Positions 10,375-59,060 of a stretch of 64,000 nucleotides of DNA are shown here, piece by piece. The position numbers were made by a program, and so were the translations under genes. The DNA comes from Cyanidioschyzon merolae (Eukaryota), in the NCBI GenBank assembly GCA_000091205.1, contig AP006495.2; one strand, written 5' to 3'. The stretch's first letter is position 1. Every line of letters begins with the position of its first letter. The notes under the pieces are model-generated. The model saw only the letters and a list, made by a program, of their open reading frames with translations. It was not told where the DNA came from and ran no database searches.

Positions 10375-10870
10375 GCTGAGGTATGGACATGGAGGTCGGG
10401 GATCCTGCAGGGCTGGTGTCCCCGGATGTTTGCGAAAAAACGACAGAAAAAATCCTCTTCCCTCCGGCCGTCGACAGAAGACGAGCAAGTGGCGACGACG
10501 AAGAAGAACAGGGCAGATGGGCGAAAAATGGTGTTTGCCCCACGAGACGATGCCGCAACTGTATTGGAAAAGAGGGCAGGAGTTCGAGGACTCCTTGCAT
10601 GGGTGCGCTCCACCAGATGCAATACATGCAAGGAGTTCCTGAACCGGGCCTTCAGCGCCGCCATCAATATCAGATGATGTGTGGTGCTGAAGACGAGACC
10701 CGAGGGGCTGAAGCGATCCAACTTTGTAGTGCAGTCTCTGATGCTCGAAGCGTACAAAGAGAAGCTGGAATCGATAGTAGACGCCCTGTCGACAAAGACT
10801 GGGACGTGTCTCCGGGTGGGTATTCATTTACCCCACATGTTCGTTGGGCAGTTTTTGTTTCACTGATCAG
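10375..10870 (+). mobile_element. 5'-truncated 3' fragment of a TnpB/Fanzor-like element (copy A)
   Basis: ...RAGVRGLLAWVRST...KEFLNRAFSAAINIR* at 10426-10677. This is followed by a conserved tail (MVLKTRPEGLKRSNFVVQ...YKEKLESIV) shared with copies at 28.2, 41.7, 52.4 and 58.8 kb. A 1-nt indel shifts frame relative to copy C. Confidence 0.6.
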
Positions 10871-13515: not shown

Positions 13516-16500
13516 GAGGCTTTGCTGCTCTGCAGTGCACAGGTGGCTGCCCGAGTTCGCGTTCGGAACGGTCGCTGCGGCCGCGTTGCTTCGAGAACCC
13601 CAGAACGAACGGTGCTGAAGGCCCAGTGCCTGGTACAGGAACGCTGGGGTGTCCTTTTGTTCTGAGCAGCTGATCGGTGTTGCGTGATGGTACGAATGCT
13701 CAGGTAGGCTTCAAGTATGCATGTTTTGAACAAGCGTCGTTGAAGCGGCCTACAATAGTGAGCAGCGCAAGTTTCCGACGTAAAGGGCTCTTTCTGTTGG
13801 GCGGGTGCTGTTGCGAAAAGGACGTATCAGTTGGGACACTCTCAGCGTTCGGATTGTGTTGTTGCGAGGGATGTAAGGATGAAGCAGCGGTATAATGGTG
13901 TTTCGGTAGTAGTAAGGTGCTACATTCGAAGCAGGACAAAGCTAGTGAAGCCGTGTCGCGAGGAACGTCCGTTTTCACCAGGAGGATCGGTGCTCTACCC
14001 TACGAAGCGTTTGCATGAACTGTAGATCAGACGGCCACCAAAACCGAAGCATGCTGTCCGTAAAATGACGCTGAAATGATTGCAGGTCGACCACGTGGCA
14101 CGAATGGAAGCAGCACGGAATACAGAAGGACGCAACGCGTTGGATCTCTGTTCGACCTCCACAGCTGCCTCGTTGATTGTTCGTACGGTATCAACGGAAG
14201 CGACAAACAACTCGGATGACACTACACATCAGATCCGGAGGACATACCAGCACATATAGACCTGAACTTGAACGACACCTGTGCAGTGCCAACGTCAGAG
14301 ACTTGCAGCAAAAGAGGCGAGTACAAGACGCTTTGTCTCAATTGTGTATGGATATAACGAGGAAAGCGTCGACTTCCGCCGACGCATGAAATGCAAACAA
14401 CGCGTCCAGAAGCAAATGACATTGAATTGTTCTGCTGCATGAAGCACCGCACTTTTATCGTTTGCATAGCCTGCTTGTTGAGCTGCTTATGTCCGCGATA
14501 ATCACTGAGATGTAACTGTGTCAGAACCAATTCGGAAGCTTCTGCTTGGGTAACGCGGGCGTAGACGCTAGCATTTTCGGTTTCTTCATGCTGTCACCAA
14601 CAGCAGCCATGCGGGCTTTCCCCCGCGAAGCCAAGTCCGAGTCCCAGATACTTTTCCATGGAAACAGCAGGGACGGAGGCATCTGAAAGCATTTGCCGTC
14701 AGCGGTACCTTCCTGGGGTCGAATGATACTTCTTCGAATACTGCTTACAGAGTAGAATTCGGTTTTCGAATGGAATCGAATCTTGGACATGAGGTTCAGT
14801 GTATTTCGGCATGAGCTTGTGAGTAAGCCGTCAAGGGACGATATCTAGAATATTGAATGTCGACTATCCAGAGGCGTGAGCTGCTGTTTCCACCACTTAC
14901 CTCGAACAAGAAAGATCGAAAACTCGCAGATTGCGTGTTTTGAGCAGGCTACACGTAAGAAAGGAGAAGCTTGGAAGTTTCTATATTTGAGCAGGATGAT
15001 GATGTCAGTTACTTTACGAAACCCTGTTCAACGACTCTACGAATCATCTTGATTCAGGTGTCGCAACGAATTCCAGCGGCAAAACTTCGAAGGAGCCCAT
15101 TAAAAAAGACGCCCGATAATCCTGAATGTGCCTATGAATCCGTAAGCTCCCCTCTCCACTCTTCCATTGTCGATGCTGTGCAACTAAAATCTGGTCGGAA
15201 GAAAATGCATACAAGTGAAGAAAGCGAGTAGTCCAGTGTTCGGGATTAAACTGACGCCAGTGCCGTTGATGAGGCAGGCACTTACGCTGCCTATCCTCCT
15301 GTGCCTCTATATCTCTATTTATCTAACCATGCGTCTATGGACCCATCGTGAATTGAGTGCTTCGATCGATAAACAGTGCAATGGAATCGTAGAAGAACGT
15401 AACTGTTCACATATTGCCCCTGGAAAACCGCTTCCAGTCCATAGGTTTGACACTCCAGTCTCTTTGGTTTTTGAAGCAGACCATGCTAGTGCAGTGCACG
15501 AGGCGGAACGCCAAGGCGCTCTCTCTCCTGGCCTCTGATTCGGTTTTCAGCACAAGGTTCCGGCGTTGCAGTACACTGCCTACAATGAGTACAAGACGAT
15601 TCTTTCAAAAAATATAACTCTCGCACGAAATAAAGCCGCAGGGCGCCTTGGAAACACATTTTTTCTCTGTGCTCATCGAGATATTCATGTCGTAGTGCAG
15701 CAAGTGCGTGTTCGCAATGTTGCCGGTGGTGTCACACCAGGCACGCTTCTCGCTCTCCATTGTCTCGTCATCGAAGGTTCGGTCCGCTGCCCGTAGCGCA
15801 TCTCGCGCATCCGTATCTGTTTCACACGCTCCTTCTCGATGTGTCTCAGAGCGTACCTTTGCTCATGATGCGCGTGTATTGTCGTGAACGCATCCATGGG
15901 AATCGTCGAGCATCCACGCTAGACCACGGGAAACGCTCCCGTCGATGGAGCACGACTGCAGCCTCTGCGCGCTGCACGACGTCTAGAACTGCAGCCCAGC
16001 ACTAAGTGACGCGAGTTGTCCGTCATTCGCCCTTCCGTCTCATGGGCAAAAGTCACGAATGGACGGTTCTTGCCTCCGTACAACCGACATTGTTGCCGGA
16101 TGCAGCGCACGCTCGCCAACTCCTGTTCAAAATCGTTCGCACGAGACTTCCACGTTCCCGTATCCGATCTGAGGCAGAGCACCCCTTCAATGAGCACCAC
16201 TCGACGGGGCCGTGCAGGTTACCGCACACCTGGTACATCGGACACACCGGAGACAAGGCTTGCAGGGCGCTGCCTCACGAAGCACTTGATATGCACCTGC
16301 ATTTGCGTTTGGGGTTTGGTTTCGTCTTTTCTGGAAACCTGTGCTGTTGATGTTCCGATCGCCGGAGTGGTGCGGAGACGCCTCAACGTTCTCTAAGAAG
16401 CGGGCGTGTAAGCTTCTTACTCTACAAGCAGGTCGTGCGGCGTCATCTGCCCGACGGATCAGTTTTGTTGTCACACGAAGAGTTGATGGAAACCTTCCGG

Positions 16501-19574: not shown

Positions 19575-21117
19575 CATAGCAGACATACATGGAACGGGCC
19601 CACAGCGCTCAATCGGGCGTACACACGAAATGCGGAGCATCTCGTATTTGTCATGAACAAATGACCCGGTAGGCCTCTTCCGACACAGCGTACTTGCTCT
19701 CGTTCGCACCTCGGGATTTTTGGACACGCCAGTCTCTCTGGACCCCGCAGTTCCACGGTCTCCCGTCGAAGGATGCTCGTGGCAGCGCCCGAGTCCCGAT
19801 CTCACAGCTGCCGGCTGTTGTCGATGCAGTTCATCCACCGGCGAGACTTGCAATCCATGCTTCGCTTGCCAGCTTCGTCTTCTTCGAATACAGCGCCGAT
19901 GCGCTTTGCGCAGCGGTCGCACTCGACTGCTGTTGTCGGGTATCCCACATGTCCAGCGCACACCCGTCACCGAGTGCAGCGCTGTGCGGCGTGAAGGACT
20001 CCTCCAGTGCTCGGTGCACGCCCCTGACGAGTACAGAAGGCGTCGCTCGATGCCGTGCTCCGTTGCCGCGCCCGGTACCGTACACTGTCGTCACGAACTT
20101 GTTCAGGGCGATCCCCTCGGCGAGTACGCTGTCCGCGGCAGACGCAAGCGAAGGCTTCTGCATTACGCAGAGGATCTGTGAAACGCGGTGCTGTCCGTGA
20201 TAGAGCACGGAGCAGACGGAAGCTTCACACTCGAGAAGTCGTCGACATACTCCGAGCCGTTTCCGATCCCTGGTTGCAAAGCGGTGACACAGGCTCCGCT
20301 GGAAGCGAGTGCCGGGAGAGCTGGTATCCGAGTCCGAGACCGAGCACCCATGGACGGGCAGGAGCCGAGCACCCGTGGACGGGCAGGAGCCGAGCACCCA
20401 TGGACGGGCAGGAGCCGAGCACCCATGGACGGGCAGGAGCCGAGCACCCGTGGACGGGCAGGAGCCGAGCACCCGTGGACGGGCAGGAGCCGAGCACCCA
20501 TGGACGGGCAGGAGCCGAGCACCCATGGACGTCCGTGCCCTGTGGGGTACCGTGCTTGCGTCGAACGCCGTCTCAGCGGTGTTAGCAAGGAGCCGGGCGA
20601 TATGTCTCCTCGGCCGAGTTCGACGCTCTGACTTGCGAAGTACGGTGAGCGATCGGCTCGAGCTTGTGAGCAAGTCGTTAACGGACGGCGTCGACGAACG
20701 TTCCGAAAGCGTCCAGGTGCTTGAGGTGGCGCGCCCACTGGGTTGCCTCGGAATAGCAAGATCGAAAACCTGAAGATTGGATACTCGGAGCGGGCTGCAA
20801 GTGAAGATAGAAGAAGAGAGGCGTCTAGCGCGTATGCATACAACGGTAGTATCGATTCGTTTACGATGCCTTGTTCGCGGGTGTCCCGAATCGTCTCGAT
20901 TCTGGTGACGTAACGAGTTGCAGCGGCACATCGTTGAACGTGTCGCTCCGCGAGAAAGAAGAACCACCGACCTAGAATCCTGAGAGTGTATACGAATCCG
21001 TAAGCATTTTATTGGTGCTCCATGAAAGTCAGCGCTTTGCATCTGAACAAGTTCAGAGGGAAATCTAAATGCAGGAACAGGGTGTGCAGTTCTTTTGTAG
21101 ACTTATATCTGACGCGG
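19575..21117. repeat. Segmental duplication, copy 1 (about 1.54 kb, direct orientation)
   Basis: Near-identical to 26608-28175, with a few SNPs and one extra 25-bp unit in copy 2. The coordinate offset is 7033 before the minisatellite and 7058 after it. Divergence points were read directly at both ends. Confidence 0.9.
20338..20530. repeat. 25-bp minisatellite, about 7.7 units (ccgagcaccc[a/g]tggacgggcaggag)
   Basis: Direct reading. Because 25 is not a multiple of 3, all three frames give a 25-aa periodic pseudo-peptide (EHPWTGRSRAPMDGQEPSTHGRAGA), explaining the overlapping ORFs. Confidence 0.9.
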
Positions 21118-26607: not shown

Positions 26608-28175
26608 CATATCAGACATACATGGAACGGGCCCACAGCGCTCAATCGGGCGTACACACGAAATGCGGAGCATCTCGTATTTGTCATGAACAAATGACCC
26701 GGTAGGCCTCTTCCGACACAGCGTACTTGCTCTCGTTCGCACCTCGGGATTTTTGGACACGCCAGTCTCTCTGGACCCCGCAGTTCCACGGTCTCCCGTC
26801 GAAGGATGCTCGTGGCAGCGCCCGAGTCCCGATCTCACAGCTGCCGGCTGTTGTCGATGCAGTTCATCCACAGGCGAGACTTGCAATCCATGCTTCGCTT
26901 GCCAGCTTCGTCTTCTTCGAATACAGCGCCGATGCGCTTTGCGCAGCGGTCGCACTCGACTGCTGTTGACGGGTACGCCACATGTCCAGCGCACACCCGT
27001 CACCGAGTGCAGCGCTGTGCGGCGTGAAGGACTCCTCCAGTGCTCGGTGCACGCCCCTGACGAGTACAGAAGGCGTCGCTCGATGCCGTGCTCCGTTGCC
27101 GCGCCCGGTACCGTACACTGTCGTCACGAACTTGTTCAGGGCGATCCCCTCGGCGAGTACGCTGTCCGCGGCAGACGCAAGCGAAGGCTTCTGCATTACG
27201 CAGAGGATCTGTGAAACGCGGTGCTGTCCGTGATAGAGCACGGAGCAGACGGAAGCTTCACACTCGAGAAGTCGTCGACATACTCCGAGCCGTTTCCGAT
27301 CCCTGGTTGCAAAGCGGTGACACAGGCTCCGCTGGAAGCGAGTGCCGGGAGAGCTGGTATCCGAGTCCGAGACCGAGCACCCATGGACGGGCAGGAGCCG
27401 AGCACCCGTGGACGGGCAGGAGCCGAGCACCCGTGGACGGGCAGGAGCCGAGCACCCGTGGACGGGCAGGAGCCGAGCACCCGTGGACGGGCAGGAGCCG
27501 AGCACCCGTGGACGGGCAGGAGCCGAGCACCCATGGACGGGCAGGAGCCGAGCACCCATGGACGGGCAGGAGCCGAGCACCCCTGGACGTCCGTGCCCTG
27601 TGGGGTACCGTGCTTGCGTCGAACGCCGTCTCAGCGGTGTTAGCAAGGAGCCGGGCGATATGTCTCCTCGGCCGAGTTCGACGCTCTGACTTGCGAAGTA
27701 CGGTGAGCGATCGGCTCGAGCTTGTGAGCAAGTCGTTAACGGACGGCGTCGACGAACGTTCCGAAAGCGTCCAGGTGCTTGAGGTGGCGCGCCCACTGGG
27801 TTGCCTCGGAATAGCAAGGTCGAAAACCTGAAGATTGGATACTCGGAGCGGGCTGCAAGTGAAGATAGAAGAAGAGAGGCGTCTAGCGCGTATGCATACA
27901 ACGGTAGTATCGATTCGTTTACGATGCCTTGTTCGCGGGTGTCCCGAATCGTCTCGATTCTGGTGACGTAACGAGTTGCAGCGGCACATCGTTGAACGTG
28001 TCGCTCCGCGAGAAAGAAGAACCACCGACCTAGAATCCTGAGAGTGTATACGAATCCGTAAGCATTTTATTGGTGCTCCATGAAAGTCAGCGCTTTGCAT
28101 CTGAACAAGTTCAGAGGGAAATCTAAATGCAGGAACAGGGTGTGCAGTTCTTTTGTAGACTTATATCTGACGCGG
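26608..28175. repeat. Segmental duplication, copy 2 (about 1.57 kb)
   Basis: See copy 1. Its right end directly abuts the TnpB/Fanzor-like fragment B. Confidence 0.9.
27370..27590. repeat. 25-bp minisatellite, about 8.7 units (one unit more than in copy 1)
   Basis: Direct reading. The A/G variant pattern differs between the arrays (copy 1: a,g,a,a,g,g,a,a; copy 2: a,g,g,g,g,g,a,a). Confidence 0.9.
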
Positions 28176-28760
28176 ATGCAGGACTGTGTGAACACTGAGC
28201 AATACAAAAAAACGTTCAACGGCCATGGAGGGTATACAGACATCCTCCCTCGCAGACGCCGCCCAGCCTTCTTCGACTGGCTCCCCTGCTATCGGCTTCA
28301 GTTTCTCCTTGTACATTTCGTGTTGGAAAAGTTGCCCCACGAAGTTCGCACGTGTCAGCTTCCCCGGTCTCGTCTTCAGCACCACTCAACACCTGATATC
28401 CTTGACGGCGTTGAAGTCTCGGTTCACGAACTCCACGCGTTTTAGTCTCTCGTGGAGCTCATTCAGGCGAGGCTTCTTCGAACTCGCGCCCCCTGCGGCA
28501 TGTGCTGCTCTATCAGCTGTCCGAGGTTTTCCAACGCCGAACCGCTCCGTTGCCTTCTCTCAACATCAGCCTTCGGAAGTGTAAACCCCAGATCAGCCTG
28601 TGTTTTGCTCGTTCGGAACACAGCTATCGGTACCGCGACCAAACGCTGCGAGCTCTCCTTGTACGCGCGCGCCAAAAGAACCAATATTCTCCCTTTTTGG
28701 GGCAAGCAGTGCCCTGACCAGTTTCCCGCTAAAAGCTTTTGACCCTCATCCTCGTTTAAG
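28176..28760 (-). mobile_element. 5'-truncated and internally deleted TnpB/Fanzor-like fragment (copy B)
   Basis: Minus-strand reading gives ...SSQRLVAVPIAVFRTSKTQADLGF...RVEFVNRDFNAVKDIRC* and then VVLKTRPGKLTRANFVGQ...YKEKLKPI (ORFs 28463..28705 and 28161..28385). Confidence 0.55.
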
Positions 28761-29012
28761 GTGCTCAGCTATCTCAAGAAATCGACACTTGTACGCTTCT
28801 TCCTTTCGTACAAACACATACGGTGGCGGGGTGGGGGCCTGTCCGCCGATGCAGACCGCCTTCCACAGCTCGTCGGTATGAGTGTTTTGAACTTTCCTGT
28901 ACTCACGAACAGCTTCAAACTCCGCTCCTCGAAACGTGACTTTCTTCATCGCATCCCGGTACTTATTTAGTGCCGGTTGTTCAGTCGTAACTTGTTTCGA
29001 CGGCTCCGTCAT
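28746..29012 (-). CDS. Small hypothetical protein (88 aa)
   Basis: Clean ORF of lower GC with a plausible start and stop. No motif recognised. Confidence 0.3.
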   Translation of the reverse strand: MTEPSKQVTTEQPALNKYRDAMKKVTFRGAEFEAVREYRKVQNTHTDELWKAVCIGGQAPTPPPYVFVRKEEAYKCRFLEIAEHLKRG

Positions 29013-30027
29013 ACCCGACTATCGGTAGTTTCAAGCTCGCTAGACCTCCAACGGATGCATCTCATTCTGGCGCAGGTTGTCGCCAATACTATTTTTCCAT
29101 GGACAAAACGTTTACGTAGGTCAGTGTTCTCCGATTATGCGCATTTTCCTCTCTTTTTGTGGGTTTTTCAGTGCACGCTGAAGTATCCATCAAAACGCCC
29201 TACCTCCAAGTTGCATCACCCATACTTTTTCTCGGATATTCTGGTCGTTTCACACTTTGTATCGTGTGTGCCTAGTGCCTGCGGAAAGCGACAGCAATGG
29301 CGCCTATAGCGCCGGTGCGGTCGCTGTACGGAGACAATGGCGTTGTCGTAGTACAGAGGGCGTTGGCTCCAGGGTCGCCAATGCGATCTGCCAAATATGG
29401 AGGTGCGTTTATCGAGCGTGCTGTATGGAAAAAAAGGACAGAAACGAAACACGAACTAGCAACGAGATAACAACTTCGTTCCTGCCTCTCCGGTAAACCT
29501 TAAAATGGGGAAAAGGTTTACGTATTGGCGAAAGGTCCCGCGAGCCAGACGACTCTACCGGGCTTGCGCTCCGTGCTTCTCCCAGTAACGGATGGTGTTG
29601 TGAGATCTAAGCAGCTCGTCCGAAACGGAGTTTATTCTGAGACCCGGAGCGAGCATGCTGCATCTGGGCCTCGGCCTGGTTTCGGTAAACTCTTATGAAA
29701 TCGCTTCGCGCTGTCGCGAGCAGAAGGTCTGTCTGCGCAGCTTGCAGGCTCGCAGCATAGTTATGGATCCCGATTCCATATCGTATGAAACACACCTCGA
29801 GCGGACGCCGTCTGTGGTATGGCAATGCCGCCCTGTCTCCATGAGGCATCCGCTCCAGCTGCATAGGCGCAAAGGCGGACCCTCAAAGCAGGCACTCCGC
29901 GGCCGATAGAACGTACAAAAAGACGAGTACATCCCAGAACAGTTGATGGAACTTGGATGCAGGGTGCAGCAGCATGATCGACACTTTCCCGAAAGCCAAT
30001 ATCGGTTCCGCACTCTGGGATCCATGG

Positions 30028-31200
30028 TCAATGGAAACGATTTGTTATTGGAAGAAAATCCGTCCCACGCTTGGGCGCAGCGATGGACATGGTATCCTTC
30101 CTCCCTGGGTCCACGCTGACGACAACGTCGTTCACCTGTACTCCATACATCGCGGGGCCCGCCTCTTTCTTTTCATGCTTCGTCATAGGCGACAGCGAAG
30201 ACAGAATAGGACGAGCCACCCTCAAGCGCCAGCAGTGAACGCACATGGATATTCCGTATCGCGTTCGATCGTTCACGTGAATGCCTTTTTCTTTCTCGTG
30301 TCGAGCCGTTCCGAAACGAGGACATTCTTTCAATACGTTTCCCGCTTTTCGCCTGTGAACTCCGTGCTGCTTACATCGGACCCGGACTTGTCTCCTTCAT
30401 GATGCCGTAAAGGACTCTGGAGTTGATGGTCCCAAAGTGTGACTTGATGTTGGATGACGCAGCGACGTCAAAGCGCTTCTCCAGAAGCGCAACCTTCCGT
30501 TTCACCGAATCTGCATCATTATTTTCAACAATATCCATATTCGTCTTGCGTTCGAGCTCTCGGTTCGAAAACACGAAACAGAGCAGAATAAGGGGATAAC
30601 ATCTTTTTTCATATCCGATGCCTTTTCTGCATGGTTGACCAGCCCCAGAACCGCGCAATGCTCTTGAATAGCTGTATGGATCACAGAATCGTCATTCGTG
30701 ATACTGTGAGACGTATCGTCGTTGACGGAATCAGTTTTGCCTTCATCCCGACGATCGTTCATGATGCCATTGATACTGGCCCATATCTCTTCTTGGGAGA
30801 GAGGCCTGGTTAGAGCGCAAAGCCGGAGCGTATCATGAAGTGTTTGAGGTTCATGGTGAATACGGTTCTTCAGATTCGTGAGGTACTTCGTCGCCCCGTG
30901 TCCGCAAATACGCGAGTCAAGCCTGTATCGAGAACCGCTGGAGCGGTATTCGACGTAATCTTCGTGGAGGCGTGTACTCCCTCATTTCTCCTCAGCGTTT
31001 CCACTGTTCAAACCATAAGGTGGCCGATAAAGGTCGAGCTGACAAAGTCTCCCGGAATATCAACTGTCTGGCTGTGCTTGACGTCGTCCAGCATCTCCTT
31101 CACCAAATGCTGTAGTCATGAAGAAATCTTTTTCATACTCGTGCAGCAGGACGCGAAACGGTTTCTGATAGCCTCCCGCAAATTTTGCATGTAGGAACCC
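30028..31200 (-). pseudogene. Degenerate copy of the N-terminal (REC to RuvC-I) half of the TnpB/Fanzor-like gene (copy F)
   Basis: Minus-strand frames give VKVYLHGLIKGSYMQNLREAIRN (vs [23 protein letters not shown] in copy D). They also give NSVIHTAIQEHCAVLGLVN..., ...NRELERK...KSHFGTINSRVLYGI..., and ...VNDVVVSVDPGRKDTMSIAAPKRG (the RuvC-I-like VDPG). Frameshifts are present. Confidence 0.6.
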
Positions 31201-32532
31201 TTGATAAGCCCATGAAGATAGACTTTCACCACCCTCTCGCCGTATTGTTGTCTTTCGAATTGCTTTTGGTGTCTGGCCTCCTGCCTCAGCTTCTTCGTCG
31301 TCTCCTGTTACTCTGGGTTCGACACTGTTTTCCGTATTTTTACGGCAGCAGGCGACACCAGGTCTCTAGGATCCTCGACTTGAACGAACATACTTTTACA
31401 TTGGATTTTTATCTCTTCAAAATCAACGCACTTCTTTATGCCCATGGATGACGAACTTCCTGGAGGGTCTAGGACTTGACGAAGGAATACATCATGTGCT
31501 CCTGGTGTATTTCGGTTTGCTGAACGCTTCAGCGATTCACCCAGTGGTGCGATCATCATGTCTCACGATAGATAACGTTCCTTCGATGTGCTGAACCATG
31601 GAGAGTACGGAGGAATGAAGCGTAGCTCTATCCCGATAGAATCGGTAACAACTCCAACGCAAGAGAAAGGTGAAATGAAAGATACCCCAATGGAAGGAGC
31701 GCTGCCAGGCTTCAGGGGAAATTCTTCAATGATTCGACGAACTATGTGCTGTTGTATGAGCCTTCTCTATGCGCGAAACTGAGACCTTCAAACGAATCCA
31801 ATGCAGCTAGAACGAATAAGCGCAAGGTTCTCTCCAGTCTCAATTTTACATACAACGGGCACCCTGCTCCGCGAATACCCATATACGCTCCGATCGTTTC
31901 GTCCGAAGTGAGTCTCATCGACTGAAAAAGCAAAATAAAGTCCCTTTGTTTCGTACTGATCGGGACGTTAACGGAACCTGTCATTCTGATTTCGGTGGAA
32001 AATGGCCGTGCACGAGCTAGGATTCTATCTTGCGACTTTATCCCAGCGATTTCAGGATCTCACGAACAAGCTGTTGAGAAATCGAGACGCCCGTGGCGGC
32101 TTCAGTCGCCACCACTGCCTCCTGTAAGATGATAAACGTGTTGTTTTCTTCCATTGACAGCAAGCACGCTTTGAAAATACCGGTTTTTGACGCGGAGCGC
32201 ATCTACTTTCTTTCAGAGTTCTCTAGCCATCTGAGTACTGTGGTATGACCGACCTGAAGGAGGAATGCCGTCCTTCTTGCACTGTACAGTAAAGATATAT
32301 ACCCTAGAGACAATTTTCTACGGTCTATACGGTACATTGTATCATGATTTCGATCTCCTGCTGTACACCGCAGCGAGGATGGAACAAAACTGAGCTGGAA
32401 GACTGAAATTGGCTGTCTGACCTGGTTTGCACTGCATGACGCGGGTCGCGGGATACATTTTTCCTGTGCAACGTTCAGTCAAAACTACTTGAAAATCCAG
32501 CCGAGTTAGCTTGGCTTTGCGGACTGCAGGAG

Positions 32533-38759: not shown

Positions 38760-40083
38760 CTTCGGGTGGACTTTCGCTCTCGAGAAGCGTCATCTTCAGC
38801 GCGACATGTACCGCACTCCGGATACATCGTCAATGAAACAAAACATGTCCCACGCTCGTCTAGGGCAAATGAATATCCACTCGCAGACGCCTGCCAGTCT
38901 TTTTTGGTAGGCCTACTGCTATCGACTTCAGCTTCTAGTTGAATACTTCGAGCATGAGAGGCTGCCCGACAAATTTGGATCGCGTCAGCTCCTTGGTCTC
39001 GTATTCAGTAACCCATCTTTTGGTAGTGATGGCCGCGTTGAAGTCCCAGCGCACGTATTCCATGTATTAATTGCCTCTGGTTGACCTCAGTAGTGCAAGG
39101 ATTCCGAAAACTCGCGCCCCACTGTACCACTACAGACTCGTGGCCGTTGCGTCCAAGAGATACCTTTTCTGGTCTATGTCCTCGCTTGTTCGTCACTCAC
39201 TCTTCTCCGCTCGATTGTCAGCGAGAAGAGGGCTTTTGCAATTATTTGTCGAAGTCGGCAATGACAATACTCCTGGATCCTCGACTTCCATGTCCATACC
39301 TACCCAATGGATTTTCTATTTCTCCATATGAACGCACATCGAAAGCATCTACTGAGATCCGGGATAAATCAATCAATTATGCGTACGTGGGTGCAGAACA
39401 CAATGAAAGGTGAAAGCAGGAATGATGGAGAGTTAATGGCGAACGCATTGTTTGACTACGGGGTACGCAGGGCCAGCAGGATCACCGATACGTTCGCGTC
39501 CGCTGAAGCAGAAGCAGCAGGGTTCGAGCGCGCTGCAAACTACGGGGTGTTCCTGCTGGCCTCTGATCCGACGCGTAAGCGTTTCTCGACCGTATGATGC
39601 CTACAAGAAACTGTTCTTTACATGGATGCTATCTGCCGATAGATGCTGATTTGTATAGATCCACATCACCAACTTGGGCGCTCATTCTATGCAACTCGCT
39701 TCTTTCTTGCGTCCTGTACGCGTTCTGAGGCGATAGATTGCCAATCGCCACCGTTCCGTGCCCAGCGACAAGCGAGTCGAATGATGCCTACAAGCACCAT
39801 AGCACATTCGATATACGACGTCGAAACTGGATGCTTCGCGTGCCCGCGTTCGACACGTATATAGTACAGAGGCTGGCGCGTGCCTCGTGCACGATACCCT
39901 CAACATTACAGGTGCTGAATGTAGTTCGAGCGCATGCTTACGCAGCCTGAAGTGATGCACAAGAACACGCTGTCTCCAGTCGATGCTATCGCAGACTCGA
40001 CACTTGCTTCGGCTGCAGTGCAGGTTCTGCTTGTGCGTCTGTGTGCATGTCCGGTGAGATCTTCTTTGCCGCCTTCTTAGGTT

Positions 40084-41283
40084 TCATTCCAACTTGAACA
40101 GAATCTTTCCCTTTCGATTCGGGGCAAACTGTGCCCGAAAAGCATCCTCATACTGTTCGAGTGTATATTCTTGCTCAACTTGCGGTCGCATATCACCTTT
40201 GCGAATCATTTCAAACGTTTCCTCGAAAATCGTCGGCTTCTGGTTCTTCAACCAAGTTGTAAGCGAGAAACCGCGGACAACGATGCCCTTAAAGATCAGA
40301 TCACTGTTCATGACACACGTCGGTTTGCCGCTCTGCAGCCCGTATGCCATGAAAAGGCCGCCCGGGGAGAGCGCTGCCAGCGCAGCCGAGCCCATCTCGC
40401 CGCCAACAGCGTCAACGACGGCAGCGAGCCCGCGTCCATTCGTTATCGCGTTGAGACGCTCGGCGAGGTTCGGCTCCTCGCCAAAAACGATCACCTCGTC
40501 TGCCCCGAGCTGTTTCAGTTCCGCAACAGATGCTTTCGATCGCACAAAGTTCACCGTGCACAAGCCCCGCTTTTTCGCCAGCTGGATGAACATACGACCG
40601 AGAGTCGAGTTCGCCGCTGTCTGTCCGATCCACGGGTTGCCGTGAACCGGCGCCTCCGCTTCGATCTGCTCCAACATGCCGACCACGGTCAGCGGATTCA
40701 CTATCAATTGAGCGGCCTCTTTATCACCGATATCCTGTGGTACTTTGATACAGAGGTTTTCGTCCACCACGAGGTACTGTTGCCAGCAGCCCGAGCGATC
40801 CGCAAGTGTTGGAATCACACGCGTCCCGACAGGAAGCGAGGTCGCTGGACCTTGCGCCACAACTTCTCCGACACCCTCGAGGCCGCCAACAAACCCAGGA
40901 CGACGTTCGCGCACTGCGGCTACCCCAGGGTACACGCCTTGGACGACAAACACGTCGGCAGGATGGAGGCATGCATACCGCATCTTCACGAGCACCTGAC
41001 CCGGACCAGGCTTCGGGACAGAAGCAGTGGTGTTCAACCTAAGTGCTCCCTTCAGCGGATCGCCAAAACTTACAATTTCCAGAGCTTTCTGCGTTGACGG
41101 TATATGTGTTGCCATAGAGTCTGCAAATCGGTTGCGTCTTCCAGCAACGACACCGCCAGGCCTGTGTCTGGAATCAATTTTGGGGCAGGGAGTGCGCACA
41201 TCAGGCTGGCCGCGTCCACCCGCCACACCTGGACCCGTGCCGCGGTATGCGAATGAATCTGGACTGTGGGAGGCAGCGTGCAT
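40084..41283 (-). CDS. Trans-2-enoyl-CoA reductase (MECR/Etr1-type MDR-family oxidoreductase), probably mitochondrial
   Basis: MRYACLHPADVFVVQGVYPG resembles Etr1 (NPADINQIQGVYP). The MDR-type zinc-ADH fold runs throughout. The true start is more likely the internal Met at about 41115 (MATHIPSTQKALEI...), because the upstream part of the ORF overlaps the Fanzor-like fragment C on the other strand. Confidence 0.7.
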   Translation of the reverse strand: MHAASHSPDSFAYRGTGPGVAGGRGQPDVRTPCPKIDSRHRPGGVVAGRRNRFADSMATHIPSTQKALEIVSFGDPLKGALRLNTTASVPKPGPGQVLVKMRYACLHPADVFVVQGVYPGVAAVRERRPGFVGGLEGVGEVVAQGPATSLPVGTRVIPTLADRSGCWQQYLVVDENLCIKVPQDIGDKEAAQLIVNPLTVVGMLEQIEAEAPVHGNPWIGQTAANSTLGRMFIQLAKKRGLCTVNFVRSKASVAELKQLGADEVIVFGEEPNLAERLNAITNGRGLAAVVDAVGGEMGSAALAALSPGGLFMAYGLQSGKPTCVMNSDLIFKGIVVRGFSLTTWLKNQKPTIFEETFEMIRKGDMRPQVEQEYTLEQYEDAFRAQFAPNRKGKILFKLE

Positions 41284-41925
41284 TCGTCAACTTTTTCAAT
41301 CAGTTGAGCGCCTTGAAGGAGGATCAAAGTCAGAGGCTCGTAGTAGCGTACGGAGCAGGGCGCTGGAAGACCCAAAAAGGGACGAGGCCAGCTCCAACGA
41401 CAAGAATGTATGAGGCGTGCACACGGCGTTTCGTTACGATACCGATAGATGAGTTCCGAATATCCTATACACACCATGAACTGGGATGCACACTTCAGAG
41501 GGTCGAGATGGAAACGTGCCAACGGAGCCCTGAGGATATAAAAAAGCACGGACCGCTGACGGAAGAGCAAATGGAAAGGAGGGCGAAAGTTCGTGCATTG
41601 CTTGCACTAGTGAGTACAACCAATGATAGTAAGAAACGTATGGAGTTCGTGAATCGTGACTTTAATCCTGCTATCAATATAAGGAAATGTGTGGTGCTGG
41701 AGACGAGACCTCCAGAGTAGACAAGAGAGAATTTTACTGGACAACCTCTCAAGGTTGAATCATATGAGAAAAAGCTGGAAGCAGTAGTGGGTGACCCGTC
41801 GAACAAGGCCGCGAGGCGTCTGCACATCAGTTGGTGACTTCTTGTCTAGGGCGCGGTTTCTCGCCACTACTGCACACCGCCGGCGACGTCGTTCGACTGC
41901 GAGAGGCGTTCGGCGGTGTACGAGG
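41150..41925 (+). mobile_element. 5'-truncated TnpB/Fanzor-like fragment (copy C), carrying the RuvC-II-like segment, the zinc-finger region, RuvC-III and the 3' tail
   Basis: ...RQRAFVNFFNQLSALKEDQSQRLVVAYGAGRW...TRMYEACTRRFVTIPIDEFRISYTHHELGCTLQRVEMETCQRSPEDI...RRAKVRALLALVSTT...KRMEFVNRDFNPAINIRKCVVLETRPPE*. The tail is conserved with copy D up to about 41900. Confidence 0.65.
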
Positions 41926-48733: not shown

Positions 48734-50387
48734 TTTGATTCTTGTGAAAGATGTTGTTACCGTGCGCATACACTGTAAAACAGGTCGCCCGTATTCGTTC
48801 CGCGCTTTTCGTAAAGACTCTGGACACACAACCGTAGCACACGTTCTGCACCGGTCTGTTGGGACGTCGTCACCAGGCGGGGGCCTTGTTTGCGTACGCA
48901 AGGCTTAACTTTAGCAATGGCAATGCATTTCGACGCCCAGGTTGCAGCAGCAGATACGAATGGCGCCCTCGGTAGGTGCCCCGCTTGCGTCACGAGATAA
49001 ACAGAAGCGGTATGCATCATCCGATGCGGGGCCTATGTACCGGTCTCAGGGTCTGTATCGAGGACGATACCTTGAACCACGGAGCGCTTCGTGTTACCAG
49101 CACGCCGTCACGTCTCCAGCGAGCAGTTTGTCGGCTGTGGTGCGGATAGGGGGCGCCTTCGCACCGCTCGGCCCTGGCCTCGTGACGCAAAGCCAGTTCA
49201 GAGCGCTGCTGCACCGATTGCAGTCGATGGTGTGCATGGTAAAAAACAGCCGTTATTGGGCAATCGCCAACAAATATCGCACGTTTTCACAGCACAATTG
49301 TGAAGCTTCCCAATACGCAAGCCGTATACGCCGTCACCGTTACCGCCACGAACAGCTACTCCAGACCGAGCAGCGGGGAAATTGCGGTACGCGAGCACCG
49401 ACGCTACCTGCATGTCGTATTGAAACGCAACAGTGGACTGTATGATTTTGTTTCCGAGCTCTGATCTTTTTCCGAGCCATTCTTAGATGTAAAGCGTCGA
49501 CATTCGAAGCGCAGCGAGATGGCTTACGGGCGCATTCGTAGCTTTCGGGTTCTAGATTGTCTTTTTCGAGTGGCTCTCGGTACGCTTTGGTGCTCGAATT
49601 CGTTGCGGCACCGGAATCTAGATGACTCACGACGCCCCCGAACACGGGTTCTCAAACTAACCGGTATCATTATCAGGTTCCTACGTACCAGCATGCACTC
49701 GTCTCCTTTCCGTGCAGGTCGCATGCTCATATGCCACCTGCTGAATGTTTTCGATCTTTCTGATTTATGGTGTAACTCGTGGGCGCAGCCATTCGCGCCG
49801 TTGGATTGACGACGAAATAAATCTTGGACGTCATCGCTTGGCGAGCTGTTCACGAGCGCATGCCGAAAGCTCCCTGAGCTCGGCACTTCAAATAATGGAT
49901 TTCGTTCGAAAGACCAATCTCCCGATCTTTGCGGTCATCCACGAAACGGCGTTCGACGGCAGTATGCTACATCTCATTGGATTTTCTCCGAAACGCTCGT
50001 GTATATTCTGTTTGCTTGAACGTGGGTTTTGGACTTGAGTCACCGCTGCGACCGCTTCCGGTGGAGCCTGCGTTATGGATAAGCACGGACGGAGCGTAGA
50101 CGGACCAGAATATCTAGAGCGCTTCTTCAACCTGAATTTTCCTTGCGGTGGTTTTCTTTTATCATGGAAATCATCGCGTTTCACAAATCATTCATGGAAT
50201 AGAGCAGCGTGCACTCGCGCGTGCAGCGGAGAGCGTATTCACCAAAGCTGACTTTCCAGAACATAACTGTTCTCGTCCGGTACTGTATTGGACCTGGAAA
50301 CGGAGAAGGACATGTCCCGAGCGAAAAAGCTCGCTTTCACGCGCCTCAGAGCGGCACTCGGAGAGGGAATTGCGATGCATGTATGTG

Positions 50388-52405: not shown

Positions 52406-53327
52406 TCAGCTCGATGATGGGGCAAACTTCGCACGAACCAGCAAGAAACGCCGTTCTAAAGTAGAACGTCGTCGGCGGTGTACAGTAGTAGCGACCGGTG
52501 CGCCTTGGACACCAAGTCGCCTACTGACGTGCAGACGCTTCCTAGGCTTTTTCGACCGGCCGCCTACTACTGCTTCCAATTGTGTCTCATATAGTAAAAC
52601 CTTAAGAGGTTGTCCAACAAAATTCTCGCGTGTCATCTCTGGAGGTCTCGTCTCCAACACCGCACATCTCCTTATATTGATGGCGGTAATAAAATCTCGG
52701 TTCACAAAATCCATCCGTTTCGTGCCGTTGGGAGTTGTACTTACTAATGCAAGCAGTCCACGAACTTTCGCTCTCCTTTCCATTTGCTCTTCCGTCAGCT
52801 GTCTATACTTTGCTATATCCTCAGGGCTCCTCTGGCACTTTTCCATCTCGACTCTCTGAAGTGTTAACCCCTGTTCATGGTGTGTGTGCTATGTTCGAAA
52901 CTCAACTACAGGTATCGTAACGAAACGCCTTGCACACTCCTTGTACATTCTTGTCGTTGGAGCTGGTGTAGTGCCTTTCTTGGGCACCCATCGTCCTGCT
53001 CCGTACGCTACGACGAGCCTCTGACTTTCCTCCTCCTTCAGGGCGCTCAACTCATTCAAAAAATTCGCGAACGCCCGCTGCCTCCCACCGTATAGATTCA
53101 TTCGCAAACGAGCCCACGGGGGTTGGTATACTCCTCCCATAGCGCATCCCGGTGCGCCATATGCGAACTTCCATGAATTTCCGGACAGCTCCAAAGTCCG
53201 CTCCTCGGCTCGTCACCTTACTCAAAGCTTCCGGGCGATCCTTCATTCCTGCATTCCGTTTCTCGATTTTCTTCCTCGCATTCATGATTCCCGATTCTCG
53301 ATAGTATCTCGCTCTCGAGATCCTCAA
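52406..53327 (-). pseudogene. Frameshifted C-terminal half of the Fanzor/TnpB-like protein (RuvC-II-like, zinc-finger, RuvC-III and C-terminal tail)
   Basis: Three different minus-strand frames (ORFs 53052..53327, 52889..53194, 52406..52846) are needed to read it. Together they are homologous to copy C. Confidence 0.65.
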
Positions 53328-54703
53328 AAAAGACGCATGTCTTTCTGACGCAAGTTACCATCAGCACCATCTTCCGTACGCTTCGGTGCTACGATGGTTA
53401 TGATATTCGTATTCCCAGGGTCCGCGCCAACGACAAGGTCGTTATCCTGCACTTTCTGCGCGGCAGGATCCTCCTCCTTCTCATCTTTATGCATCGCCGC
53501 GCCAACGACAAAGTCGTTAGCTTGCACCTCCTGCGTCGCAGCATCCTCCTCTTTGTTTTCTTCATGCTTCGCCGCGCCAACGACAAGGTCGTTATCCTGC
53601 GCTTTCTGTGTCGCGGGACCCGCCTCTTTGTTTTCTTCATGCTTCGTGACGGGCGCAGCCGATGGAGGGACTGGACGATCTTTCTTCAACCTCCGATAGT
53701 GCACACACATGGCTACTCCATCGGGTTCGATCAACCCAGTGAATACCTTTTGTTTGCTCACTTTCAGACGTTTGAAATCGAAGATGCTCATCCAGTACGT
53801 CTCCCGGTTTCCGCCGGTGAAGTCCTCCCTGCTAACATCGAACTCCGGACAGATATCCCTCGTGATGCCGTAAAGGATTCTGGAGTTGATAGTCACAAAA
53901 TGTGACTTGATCTTGCACATTGGAACCACGTTGAAGTGCTTCCCCATTAGGACAGCCTTCCGTCTCTCCCACTCTTCCTTTGACTCTTCACTCAGCTTCA
54001 TCTCCGCTTTGCGTTCGAGCTCTCGGTCCAGAAACACAAAATAGCGCAGAACGAGGCGATCGTATCTTTCCCTATCTTTTTTCAACGCTGATATCTTGTC
54101 TGTTGGATTCGCCAGCCCCAGTACCGTACGATGCTCTTCGATAACCGCACGGATGACGGAATTCTCATTCGTGCTCTGGTTTGACTCCTTGTTGTCAACG
54201 AATTCGACCTCATTTCCATAGTTTCGATCGTTCGTGATGCCATTGATAATCGCCCATATTCCTTTGCGAGACAGGCCCCGGTAGAGTGCAAACACGGCGC
54301 GTATCATGAAACGTTCGAGGTTCATTCTGAAATGGTTCTTCAGATTCGTCAGGTACTTCATCGCCCCATATGTGTAGATATCCGCGTCACCCCTGTATTG
54401 GGTACCCTCGAAGAGGAATTCCGCGAAGTTTTCGTGGAGGACTTTCACCCGCTCATTTTCCCTCCGCGCTTCCTCTGTACCAAGCATCAGCTGACGAATA
54501 AAGGTCTTATCGAAAAACTCGTCCGGAATCTCGACCGTTTCCATGTTCGTCACGTAGAGGTACATCTCCTTCACCAAATGCATCAGTCCTGAAGATGCCT
54601 TTATCCTACTCATGGGGTACAACTCGAGAAGGTTTTTGATGGCCTCTCGCAACTTTTCCTTGTACGGATCCTTGATATATTTAAGAACACAGACTTTCAC
54701 CAC
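53324..54703 (-). CDS. Intact 459-aa ORF encoding the N-terminal (REC-like to RuvC-I) portion of the Fanzor/TnpB-like protein
   Basis: Uninterrupted ORF of lower GC. The C-terminal [15 protein letters not shown] matches the TnpB/Fanzor RuvC-I (hGhDxG) pattern. It contains a 3 x 25-aa tandem repeat just upstream of that motif. Confidence 0.65.
53422..53650. repeat. Tandem repeat, 3 x 75 bp, inside the Fanzor-like ORF (encodes [25 protein letters not shown] x 3)
   Basis: The ccgcgccaacgacaa(g/a)gtcgtta.. units start at 53422, 53497 and 53572. Confidence 0.85.
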
Positions 54704-55199
54704 TATCTCGTTGTACAGTTGTCTTTCTTGCCGCCTTCGACGTAGAACCTCCCCCTTTTTGAATCTTCATCACTTCCTGTTCCTCTTTGCTCCGCCTTGT
54801 TTATCTTTTTTTCCGGCAGCGGGTGATATCGGCCCTCCGGGATCCTCCACTTCCATTTCCATGACTTTCCTTTTAATTTTTTGAAAACGAACGCTCTTTG
54901 AACGCTTCTGTTATATACTTCGAAAAAACACTTGAATATACTCAATTGAGGGTCGGAATAGGATGGAACAGAAAACCTATACTTTGCTACGACCTCAACG
55001 CGAATACAACTTTTACAGTAGAATAGCACGCCAATGATCAGGATCACTGTTCCCCTCAAGAGCGACCAGAGCGTCGTGTCTCGTGCCCGCCGGATCTGCC
55101 AGGTGCGCGTGCACGCGCAGCGGCTGACCTGCGCCCCGCCGCCGATCAGGAGATTGCTTCTGGATATGTCTATCTCAAAGCGTGATAACCTGTTGCTGA

Positions 55200-58165: not shown

Positions 58166-58544
58166 AGAACGTCGACATCATCATCTGTTCTAGCTGCGGT
58201 GGATTCATTTGGCTGCCTCAGTTCCGCTGAAGAGAACACTCATGCAGCAGCGCCCTCTTTTTGTCGAGTCATCGAAGACTTGTCCCAAACGTCTGGTGAA
58301 GTCCTTCTATTGGACATAGTGGTATTTAGCCATTCTGCTTCAGTTCGAGCATTTGCCAATTCTATCGACGGGTAGAGCTGGTTTCATTCCTTCTTCTCAC
58401 CTGTGTTTCATTCCCATAGAAGGAGAGTTTTGCGTCCTGAATCGTCACGACCGCTCCACCGGGCGAATAGATGAAGCGTTCAGCACATGGTGACCAACCG
58501 GGGCACATTTGGTCTTTATTCCGCATGTGCTGCTCGATGCGGGA

Positions 58545-59060
58545 AGGTCGTCATCTCAGGCTATAAACAAGTGCGTTCATTTTCGAAAAATCTAAGGGAC
58601 GAGCTGGAATATACACCCTAGGATGTTGAGTTGGAGCGAGGCCAGCGGAGCGTTTCGTCGACGGATCAGCACGAAGAGCTGACAGAGCACCCAATGGCAC
58701 AGCGTGCACGAGTTCGTGGTCTCCTATCATTGGTGAGATCAACCAGCGGCAACAAACGCATGGAGTCCATGAACCGAGACCTCAACGCTGGTATCAATAT
58801 CAGGAGATGCTTGTGCTGAATGCGAGGCACGCAGCGCTGCGGCAAGCTAACTTTGTTGGGCAGCCTCACAGCGTCGGAGTGTATATGGAGAAACTGAAAC
58901 CGATACCAGAACCCTGTAAGAAAAGGCTGAGAGACGTCTGCGGGTGGATATTCATTTACACGATATTGTGGCGAAACGGGTTTGCTGCACTGACGTAACG
59001 TTGTTCGCTTCGGCATTCGCGCTGTTATCTGCTCCCGAGCAAACCGCGAAAAGCAGGCAA
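58545..59060 (+). mobile_element. 5'-truncated TnpB/Fanzor-like fragment (copy E)
   Basis: ...VELERGQRSVSSTDQHEELTEHPMAQRARVRGLLSLVRSTSGNKRMESMNRDLNAGINIRRCLC* is followed by the conserved tail (LVLNARHAALRQANFVGQPHSVGVYMEKLKPIPEP). Confidence 0.6.

Follow-up and report, generated by a model that had tools for sequence, protein, structure and literature searches.

We found that two segments reading QRLVVAYGAGRW in Cyanidioschyzon merolae DNA are very probably the RuvC-II strand of decayed Fanzor1 copies of the CMe-1A family, in which a shifted Glu completes an Asp-Glu-Asp metal site. Both segments lie in a window of 64 kb, which is the whole stretch of DNA analysed here. A sequence-only reading of this window had pointed to them, as the acidic residue of a canonical TnpB RuvC-II strand appeared to be lacking in both copies (here copy C and copy D). 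The two ORFs that it reported, 52889..53194 (-) and 41247..41720 (+), are present exactly as it gave them. In addition, QRLVVAYGAGRW was verified codon by codon in both copies, and the residue at the position of the canonical Glu is indeed non-acidic, namely a Gly encoded by GGA. However, it was wrong to expect an acidic residue there in this family, and also to restrict a rearranged active site to some Fanzor lineages. Such a site does occur in Fanzors, and according to the literature all of them carry Pro or Gly at this position (PMC10530073, PMC10711439). The downstream Glu, the pseudogene state of copy C and the 5′ truncation of copy D, which lacks RuvC-I, were absent from that reading.

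The relocated Glu is already known. It is a general property of Fanzors, for which structures and mutagenesis were published in 2023-2024. Meanwhile, the C. merolae Fanzor1 family was already catalogued in 2013.

Structure and lesions of copy C and copy D

The features of the two copies are listed below in window coordinates, with the basis of each assignment in brackets.

52450..55110 (-): copy C, near full-length pseudogenised CMe-1A-type Fanzor1 element of ~2.66 kb (alignment to the element carrying P0001)
53422..53646 (-): copy C, three 75-bp tandem repeats within the ORF (TRF and self-hits)
53414..53422 (-): copy C, RuvC-I DPG in GADPGNTNI, Asp at 53420..53422 (aligns with SpuFz1 D383-P-N385)
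53324..53326 (-): copy C, TGA directly after DMRLF (three-frame translation)
53140..53326 (-): copy C, out-of-frame stretch of ~60 codons between at least two frameshifts (three-frame translation and tblastn)
52988..53023 (-): copy C, RuvC-II strand QRLVVAYGAGRW, Gly (GGA) at 53000..53002 (aligns with SpuFz1 and GtFz1)
52889..52909 (-): copy C, VVEFRT*, predicted alternative catalytic Glu at 52901..52903 (aligns with SpuFz1 E541; invariant in alignment A2, see below)
52733..52888 (-): copy C, former TNB/zinc-finger region, with H, Q, L and P at the Zn-ligand positions (hmmalign against SpuFz1 and GtFz1 fragments)
52694..52702 (-): copy C, RuvC-III NRD, Asp at 52694..52696, followed by FITAINIRRC (aligns with SpuFz1 D606 and GtFz1 N658)
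41245..41890 (+): copy D, 5′-truncated 3′ fragment of the same element as copy C, without RuvC-I (alignment and translation)
41331..41366 (+): copy D, QRLVVAYGAGRW, Gly (GGA) at 41352..41354 (translation)
41445..41465 (+): copy D, IDEFRIS, alternative Glu at 41451..41453 (hmmalign)
41466..41650 (+): copy D, zinc-finger region, like that of copy C without CCCC (hmmalign)
41652..41660 (+): copy D, RuvC-III NRD, Asp at 41658..41660 (translation)

Copy C is 81-82% identical at the nucleotide level to the element that carries the intact relative P0001 (contig L001, 5685..8416), and its element limits recur in contigs L005, L006 and L007. The P0001 protein could be aligned along 54760..52613 of copy C using tblastn. 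Copy C spans the whole protein without a start codon, and there are stops upstream of VVKVC. Furthermore, the tblastn alignment of P0001 showed five stops in the stretch 53140..53326, and a TAG nonsense codon occupies 52889..52891, where relatives have Ser. The 75-bp repeats encode 25-aa units ending in NDLVVGA, so that the segment leading into the first RuvC strand is duplicated immediately before the DPG. The number of these units varies among paralogues from ~2 to 6, and this variable tandem repeat just before RuvC-I distinguishes the window subfamily from the solved Fanzor1 proteins.

Copy D corresponds to the final third of the gene, beginning just before the RuvC-II strand, and has an in-frame TAG at 41718..41720. 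The identity of QRLVVAYGAGRW between the two copies is not a matter of chance, because they are homologous repeat copies with 81% identity over ~650 nt. In both of them, the Gly and the alternative Glu are separated by 33 residues, and the sequence FVNRDF(I/N)(T/P)AINIR represents the RuvC-III RD..NA.N motif.

Assembly errors were considered as the source of the frameshifts and rejected. The window ELP3 and asparaginyl-tRNA synthetase are identical letter for letter to deposited C. merolae 10D proteins (BAM80969.1/XP_005537005.1 and BAM80971.1/XP_005537007.1, respectively). Thus, the lesions are real, because the adjacent host ORFs are long and intact, two of them being identical to deposited proteins, and because one lesion is a base substitution to TAG. 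Copies C and D are relics that are unable to make a functional protein.

Homology to Fanzor1 and the catalytic residues

Canonical TnpB (e.g. that of ISDra2) and Cas12f have a split RuvC of the form D..E..D, with the TNB domain between RuvC-II and RuvC-III. The window family shares this split RuvC and TNB arrangement, whereas the Glu that canonical TnpB carries in the ..hEDL.. strand is absent from it, as in every Fanzor.

Considering the window copies by themselves, one might suspect that the family is not related to TnpB or Fanzor at all and that its RuvC-like motifs arose by chance. When copy D and the reconstruction of copy C were scanned with Pfam, no family reached its threshold (PF07282 had no match at E ≤ 1), and searches of PDB sequences with a single window sequence or with a narrow 10-sequence family profile gave no match. 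P0001 matched PF07282 with an E value of 0.23 only, and the sole precomputed annotation of the relatives was PF26935 (DUF8286, a domain of unknown function). However, a profile search of 1.84 billion representatives found 2,487 clusters at E ≤ 1e-3, and the alignment A2, made of 47 diverse full-length members with 24-42% identity to P0001, gave a different result as a profile against PDB. It matched the Fanzor1 proteins of Parasitella parasitica (PpFz1, 9cf0, E = 1e-25), Spizellomyces punctatus (SpuFz1, 8gkh, E = 5e-21) and Guillardia theta (GtFz1, 9cer, E = 5e-15). These matches extended over 280-390 residues and covered all three motifs, and nothing other than Fanzor1 was matched significantly; it should be noted that the PDB homology is visible only with this broad 47-sequence profile. 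In addition, 16 of the 47 members matched PF07282 (Cas12f1-like TNB, formerly OrfB_Zn_ribbon) at E ≤ 0.01, the best with 2e-8. Homology of the family to Fanzor1 is established by these sequence comparisons, because A2 matches the solved Fanzor1 structures and a third of its members (16/47) match PF07282. Furthermore, the definers of Fanzor had already classed the C. merolae family as Fanzor1, and we give a chance resemblance practically no weight.

A second search, a word-index search with A2, returned almost only close paralogues. An AlphaFold2 model of P0001 from a shallow alignment was judged unusable (mean pLDDT 43.6, pTM 0.35).

The window family is homologous to SpuFz1 (8GKH), GtFz1 (9CER) and PpFz1 (9CF0) over WED, REC and RuvC. 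The solved Fanzor1 proteins and the window family share DP(G/N) at RuvC-I, a Gly at the position of the canonical Glu, an alternative Glu in (D/P)E(Y/H/F)xTS and RD/RN at RuvC-III. The DPG at RuvC-I is also common to ApmFz2 and TnpB2 (the latter termed 'pro-Fanzor'), which have a rearranged RuvC site (PMC10530073, PMC11832414, PMC10711439). However, the Fanzor2 and TnpB2 proteins are much smaller, resemble TnpB and are associated with IS607, and the family profile did not match them when it was run against PDB.

Alignment to the Fanzor1 structures revealed the alternative acidic residue as a Glu 33 residues downstream of the Gly. With the 8gkh numbering corrected by subtracting an MBP offset of 394 residues, the HMMER alignment places D484, E656 and D725 of P0001 on D383, E541 and D606 of SpuFz1, respectively, and hmmalign repeats this result. 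In SpuFz1, two Mg2+ are coordinated by E541, D383, N385 and D606 (Saito et al., PMC10432273). Thus, the idea of a migrated Glu, one of the two explanations in the sequence-only reading, is borne out by the V(D/V)EFRT Glu, which aligns with a Mg2+ ligand, and by the alignment of the profile to solved Fanzor1. In GtFz1, the column of D725 holds N658, a non-canonical third residue (Xu et al., PMC11423790). Meanwhile, the strand RLVVAYGAGRW aligns with FTVVMGDW of SpuFz1 and IIIGWGNW of GtFz1, and the Gly of AYG falls on the Gly at the equivalent strand position in both.

The invariant columns of A2 (P0001 numbering) include D484 (GADPG), G486, G623 (AYG), E656 (VDEFRT), and R724, D725 and N727 (FVNRDxN). 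The DPG is found in nearly all relatives, and its Asp is invariant in A2. Among the best representatives, 88 of the 98 that were scored have a Gly at the AYG position.

If the conventional RuvC-II Glu had simply been lost from copies C and D after their inactivation, intact paralogues should show it. Both copies are clearly pseudogenes, as such decay would require. However, the strand reads VVAYGAG in P0001 (752 aa, 71% identity to the reconstruction of copy C) and in P0030 (676 aa, 38%), and VIAYGAA in P0031 (623 aa, 28%). These three intact relatives all fit (V/I)(V/I)AYGA(G/A). The motif is the same in every intact or partial relative examined, and the column is also Gly in the solved Fanzor1 proteins. 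Local decay is therefore almost certainly not the explanation. The invariance of the Gly and of the triad, intact relatives with 28-42% identity included, argues that the absence of the canonical Glu is ancestral and represents the published Fanzor layout, as far as it can be read from sequence.

That layout has been described in several studies. A Pro or Gly replaces the RuvC-II Glu in Fanzor nucleases, a conserved alternative Glu lies ~45 residues away in all Fanzors as well as in the TnpB2 clade, and the mutation E467A abolishes cleavage by ApmFNuc (ApmFz2) (Jiang et al., PMC10530073). The structure of ApmFz2 shows the triad Asp324/Glu467/Asp501, with the Glu shifted by 50 residues (PMC11832414). 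The Fanzor signature was given as DPG at RuvC-I together with an alternative Glu that precedes the zinc finger by six residues (Yoon et al. 2023, PMC10711439). The window family has the same layout of DPG, Gly at the canonical position and alternative Glu, with an offset of 33 residues compared with the published ~45-50. Therefore, the acidic residue is not missing from this family and was never expected at that position. In practice, before a TnpB-like protein that lacks the ..hEDL.. Glu is declared inactive, it should be checked for the Fanzor/TnpB2 layout, i.e. DPG and a Glu that precedes the zinc-finger position by six residues.

The second explanation in the sequence-only reading was a catalytically dead family. 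The whole family would then be inactive and kept for another role, for instance in binding RNA or DNA, in regulation or after domestication, and the absence of the Glu and of the zinc finger would mark the loss of nuclease activity. The non-acidic residue at the canonical RuvC-II position is compatible with this. So are the Zn-ligand positions, which read H/L/L/S, with CCCC in only 4/103 close relatives, and the result for CrFNuc-1, a Fanzor1 that gave no cleavage in vitro (PMC10530073). However, the Asp, the alternative Glu and the second Asp are invariant in the 47 diverse relatives, down to 24% identity, and they align with the residues that bind Mg2+ in an active enzyme. Furthermore, purifying selection is strongest on the RuvC half. 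Pairwise dN/dS between copies is 0.16-0.26 for this half (~0.2) and 0.45-0.65 for the N-terminal part of copy C, and the low RuvC values indicate that the copies diverged mostly while the protein was under selection. The element is also a multi-copy mobile repeat and not a single domesticated gene. We consider inactivity of the whole family improbable.

With the shifted Glu as the preferred explanation, the active site may work as follows. In the RuvC-II strand of a Fanzor, Gly or Pro takes the place of the TnpB Glu, and the Glu of the next strand, just before the TNB domain, completes the metal site. In the putative triad of this family, GADPG and FVNRD supply the two Asp, and the Glu comes from V(D/V)EFRT, 33 residues downstream of the AYG Gly. 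In intact members, the DPG Asp, the relocated Glu and the NRD Asp would form one RuvC site that binds Mg2+. As in SpuFz1, an RNA transcribed from the element's 3′ end would select the target DNA, and this site would cut it. From these comparisons, we infer that intact family members would be active RNA-guided DNA nucleases using the 3′-end RNA of the element.

The zinc-finger region

The solved Fanzor1 proteins keep a CCCC zinc finger, whereas the window subfamily has lost these residues. According to hmmalign, the CCCC positions of SpuFz1 and GtFz1 (CxxC ... CxxxxC) are occupied by H, L/Q, L and S/P/N in P0001 and in copies C and D. We then counted the Cys in 103 close representatives, all of them with both the alternative Glu and RuvC-III. 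All four were present in 4/103, only the third in 65/103, and none in 17/103. The single Cys kept by most relatives is that of LLWC. In addition, members of the C. merolae subfamily share a conserved His-His-x3-Cys sequence (THHELGC), which might be a remnant of the zinc site or a remodelled site.

The original definition of the Fanzor motif includes a strictly conserved C4 zinc finger (Bao and Jurka 2013), and the loss of CCCC in this clade conflicts with it. The window family does not match the C4 zinc finger of that motif or of the regex of Yoon et al., and proteins of the CMe-1A clade would escape the latter (PMC10711439). CMe-1A is still placed in Fanzor1 by descent, through homology and the prior classification by the definers, and it lies outside the strict motif definition. 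A limited literature check found no discussion of zinc-finger loss in Fanzor1, and the replacement of the zinc finger may be a new side point.

The clade has largely lost the zinc-finger Cys, yet it conserves the catalytic triad, and this bears on what the TNB zinc finger does. It also bears on the existence of compact, possibly thermotolerant Fanzor1 variants. The CMe-1A clade and its many DUF8286 metagenomic relatives may form a large Fanzor1 lineage without CCCC in which the Asp/alternative-Glu/Asp set is invariant and under selection. It is conceivable, though rather doubtful at present, that this lineage still acts as an RNA-guided nuclease, its nuclease lobe being remodelled, in a thermo-acidophilic alga.

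The CMe-1A family and its 3′ end

CMe-1A is the sole Fanzor1 family listed for C. merolae by Bao and Jurka, who defined Fanzor. It was described as a Fanzor1-encoding element of ~3 kb with ~150 copies that are ~80% identical to the consensus, without terminal inverted repeats (TIRs) and with undeterminable target-site duplications (TSDs), some copies being still intact (PMC3627910). The window repeat shares with it the host, the size of ~3 kb, the multi-copy state at ~80% identity, the lack of TIRs and of determinable TSDs, the single Fanzor1 ORF and the mostly decayed copies (PMC3627910). No difference was detected in this comparison, which was made with the published description. The window repeat is assigned to CMe-1A by its match to that description.

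The window copies and those on hot-spring metagenome contigs of close relatives are 80-85% identical at the nucleotide level over ~2.7 kb, and the homology between copies ends at similar points on both sides. Exact element ends and TSDs could not be fixed from the end alignments of the copies, and no TIRs were found in the five copies searched. In contrast, the SpuFz1 elements have inverted repeats of 30 nt (PMC10432273).

Several JGI metagenomes and one SRA run contain long contigs (L001, L005-L008) with close relatives of the element and of the host genes. Of all copies seen, P0001 on L001 is the most intact, and most of the other proteins called on these contigs are pieces of disrupted copies.

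A tblastn search with the reconstructed protein detected five additional copies or fragments in the 64 kb, all of them more diverged, making seven copies or fragments in all. They are as follows (tblastn, with translation for the first).

28284..31382 (-): more diverged near full-length copy of another subfamily, with many frameshifts
10564..10818 (+): Fanzor1 fragment
58514..58905 (+): Fanzor1 fragment
15730..16125 (-): Fanzor1 fragment
38878..39192 (-): Fanzor1 fragment

The window thus also contains a second, more diverged subfamily, represented by the copy at 28284..31382 and several 3′ fragments. This copy has ~40% amino acid identity to copy C (in several frames) and 69% nucleotide identity over 1.29 kb. 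Its motifs are decayed, with LLAGNWSG for VVAYGAG and IAVFRTS for VDEFRTS. Its 3′ terminus (..GTGGATATTCATTTACCC..) differs and is common to the fragments at 10.6k, 39k and 58.7k. Five of the seven window relics are fragments without the 5′ portion of the gene, and the 3′ end is kept in at least four of these five. The five truncated relics sit in intergenic spacers and have different truncation points, and no poly(A) tail was found on them.

The 3′ end of the element has a plausible, conserved long-range stem of 13-14 bp, which was predicted using RNAalifold on six copies.

52482..52573 (-): copy C, stem formed by GCAGTAGTAGGCGG (52560..52573) and TCGCTACTACTGT (52482..52494)
41780..41870 (+): copy D, corresponding stem

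The stem (GCAGTAGTrGGyGG ... CGCyACTACTGy) encloses ~65 nt and lies just inside the 3′ boundary, where it overlaps the sequence coding for the C-terminal tail. It might serve as a guide-RNA scaffold. Single-sequence fold z-scores of the 3′ region ranged from -4.0 to -0.7, and the stem showed no covariation across the six copies (RNAalifold covariation term +0.65). Rfam and tRNA scans of the window gave no match.

Finally, other short repeats are common to the window and to L001 outside its Fanzor element. In the window they are located at 19983..20194, 27016..27227, 29092..29282 and 49744..50013. For instance, L001 13224..13435 matches two window sites with 68% identity, and L001 4402..4593 matches 29092..29282 with 81%. 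These repeats may represent further repeat families, such as TE-N2_CMe-like ones.
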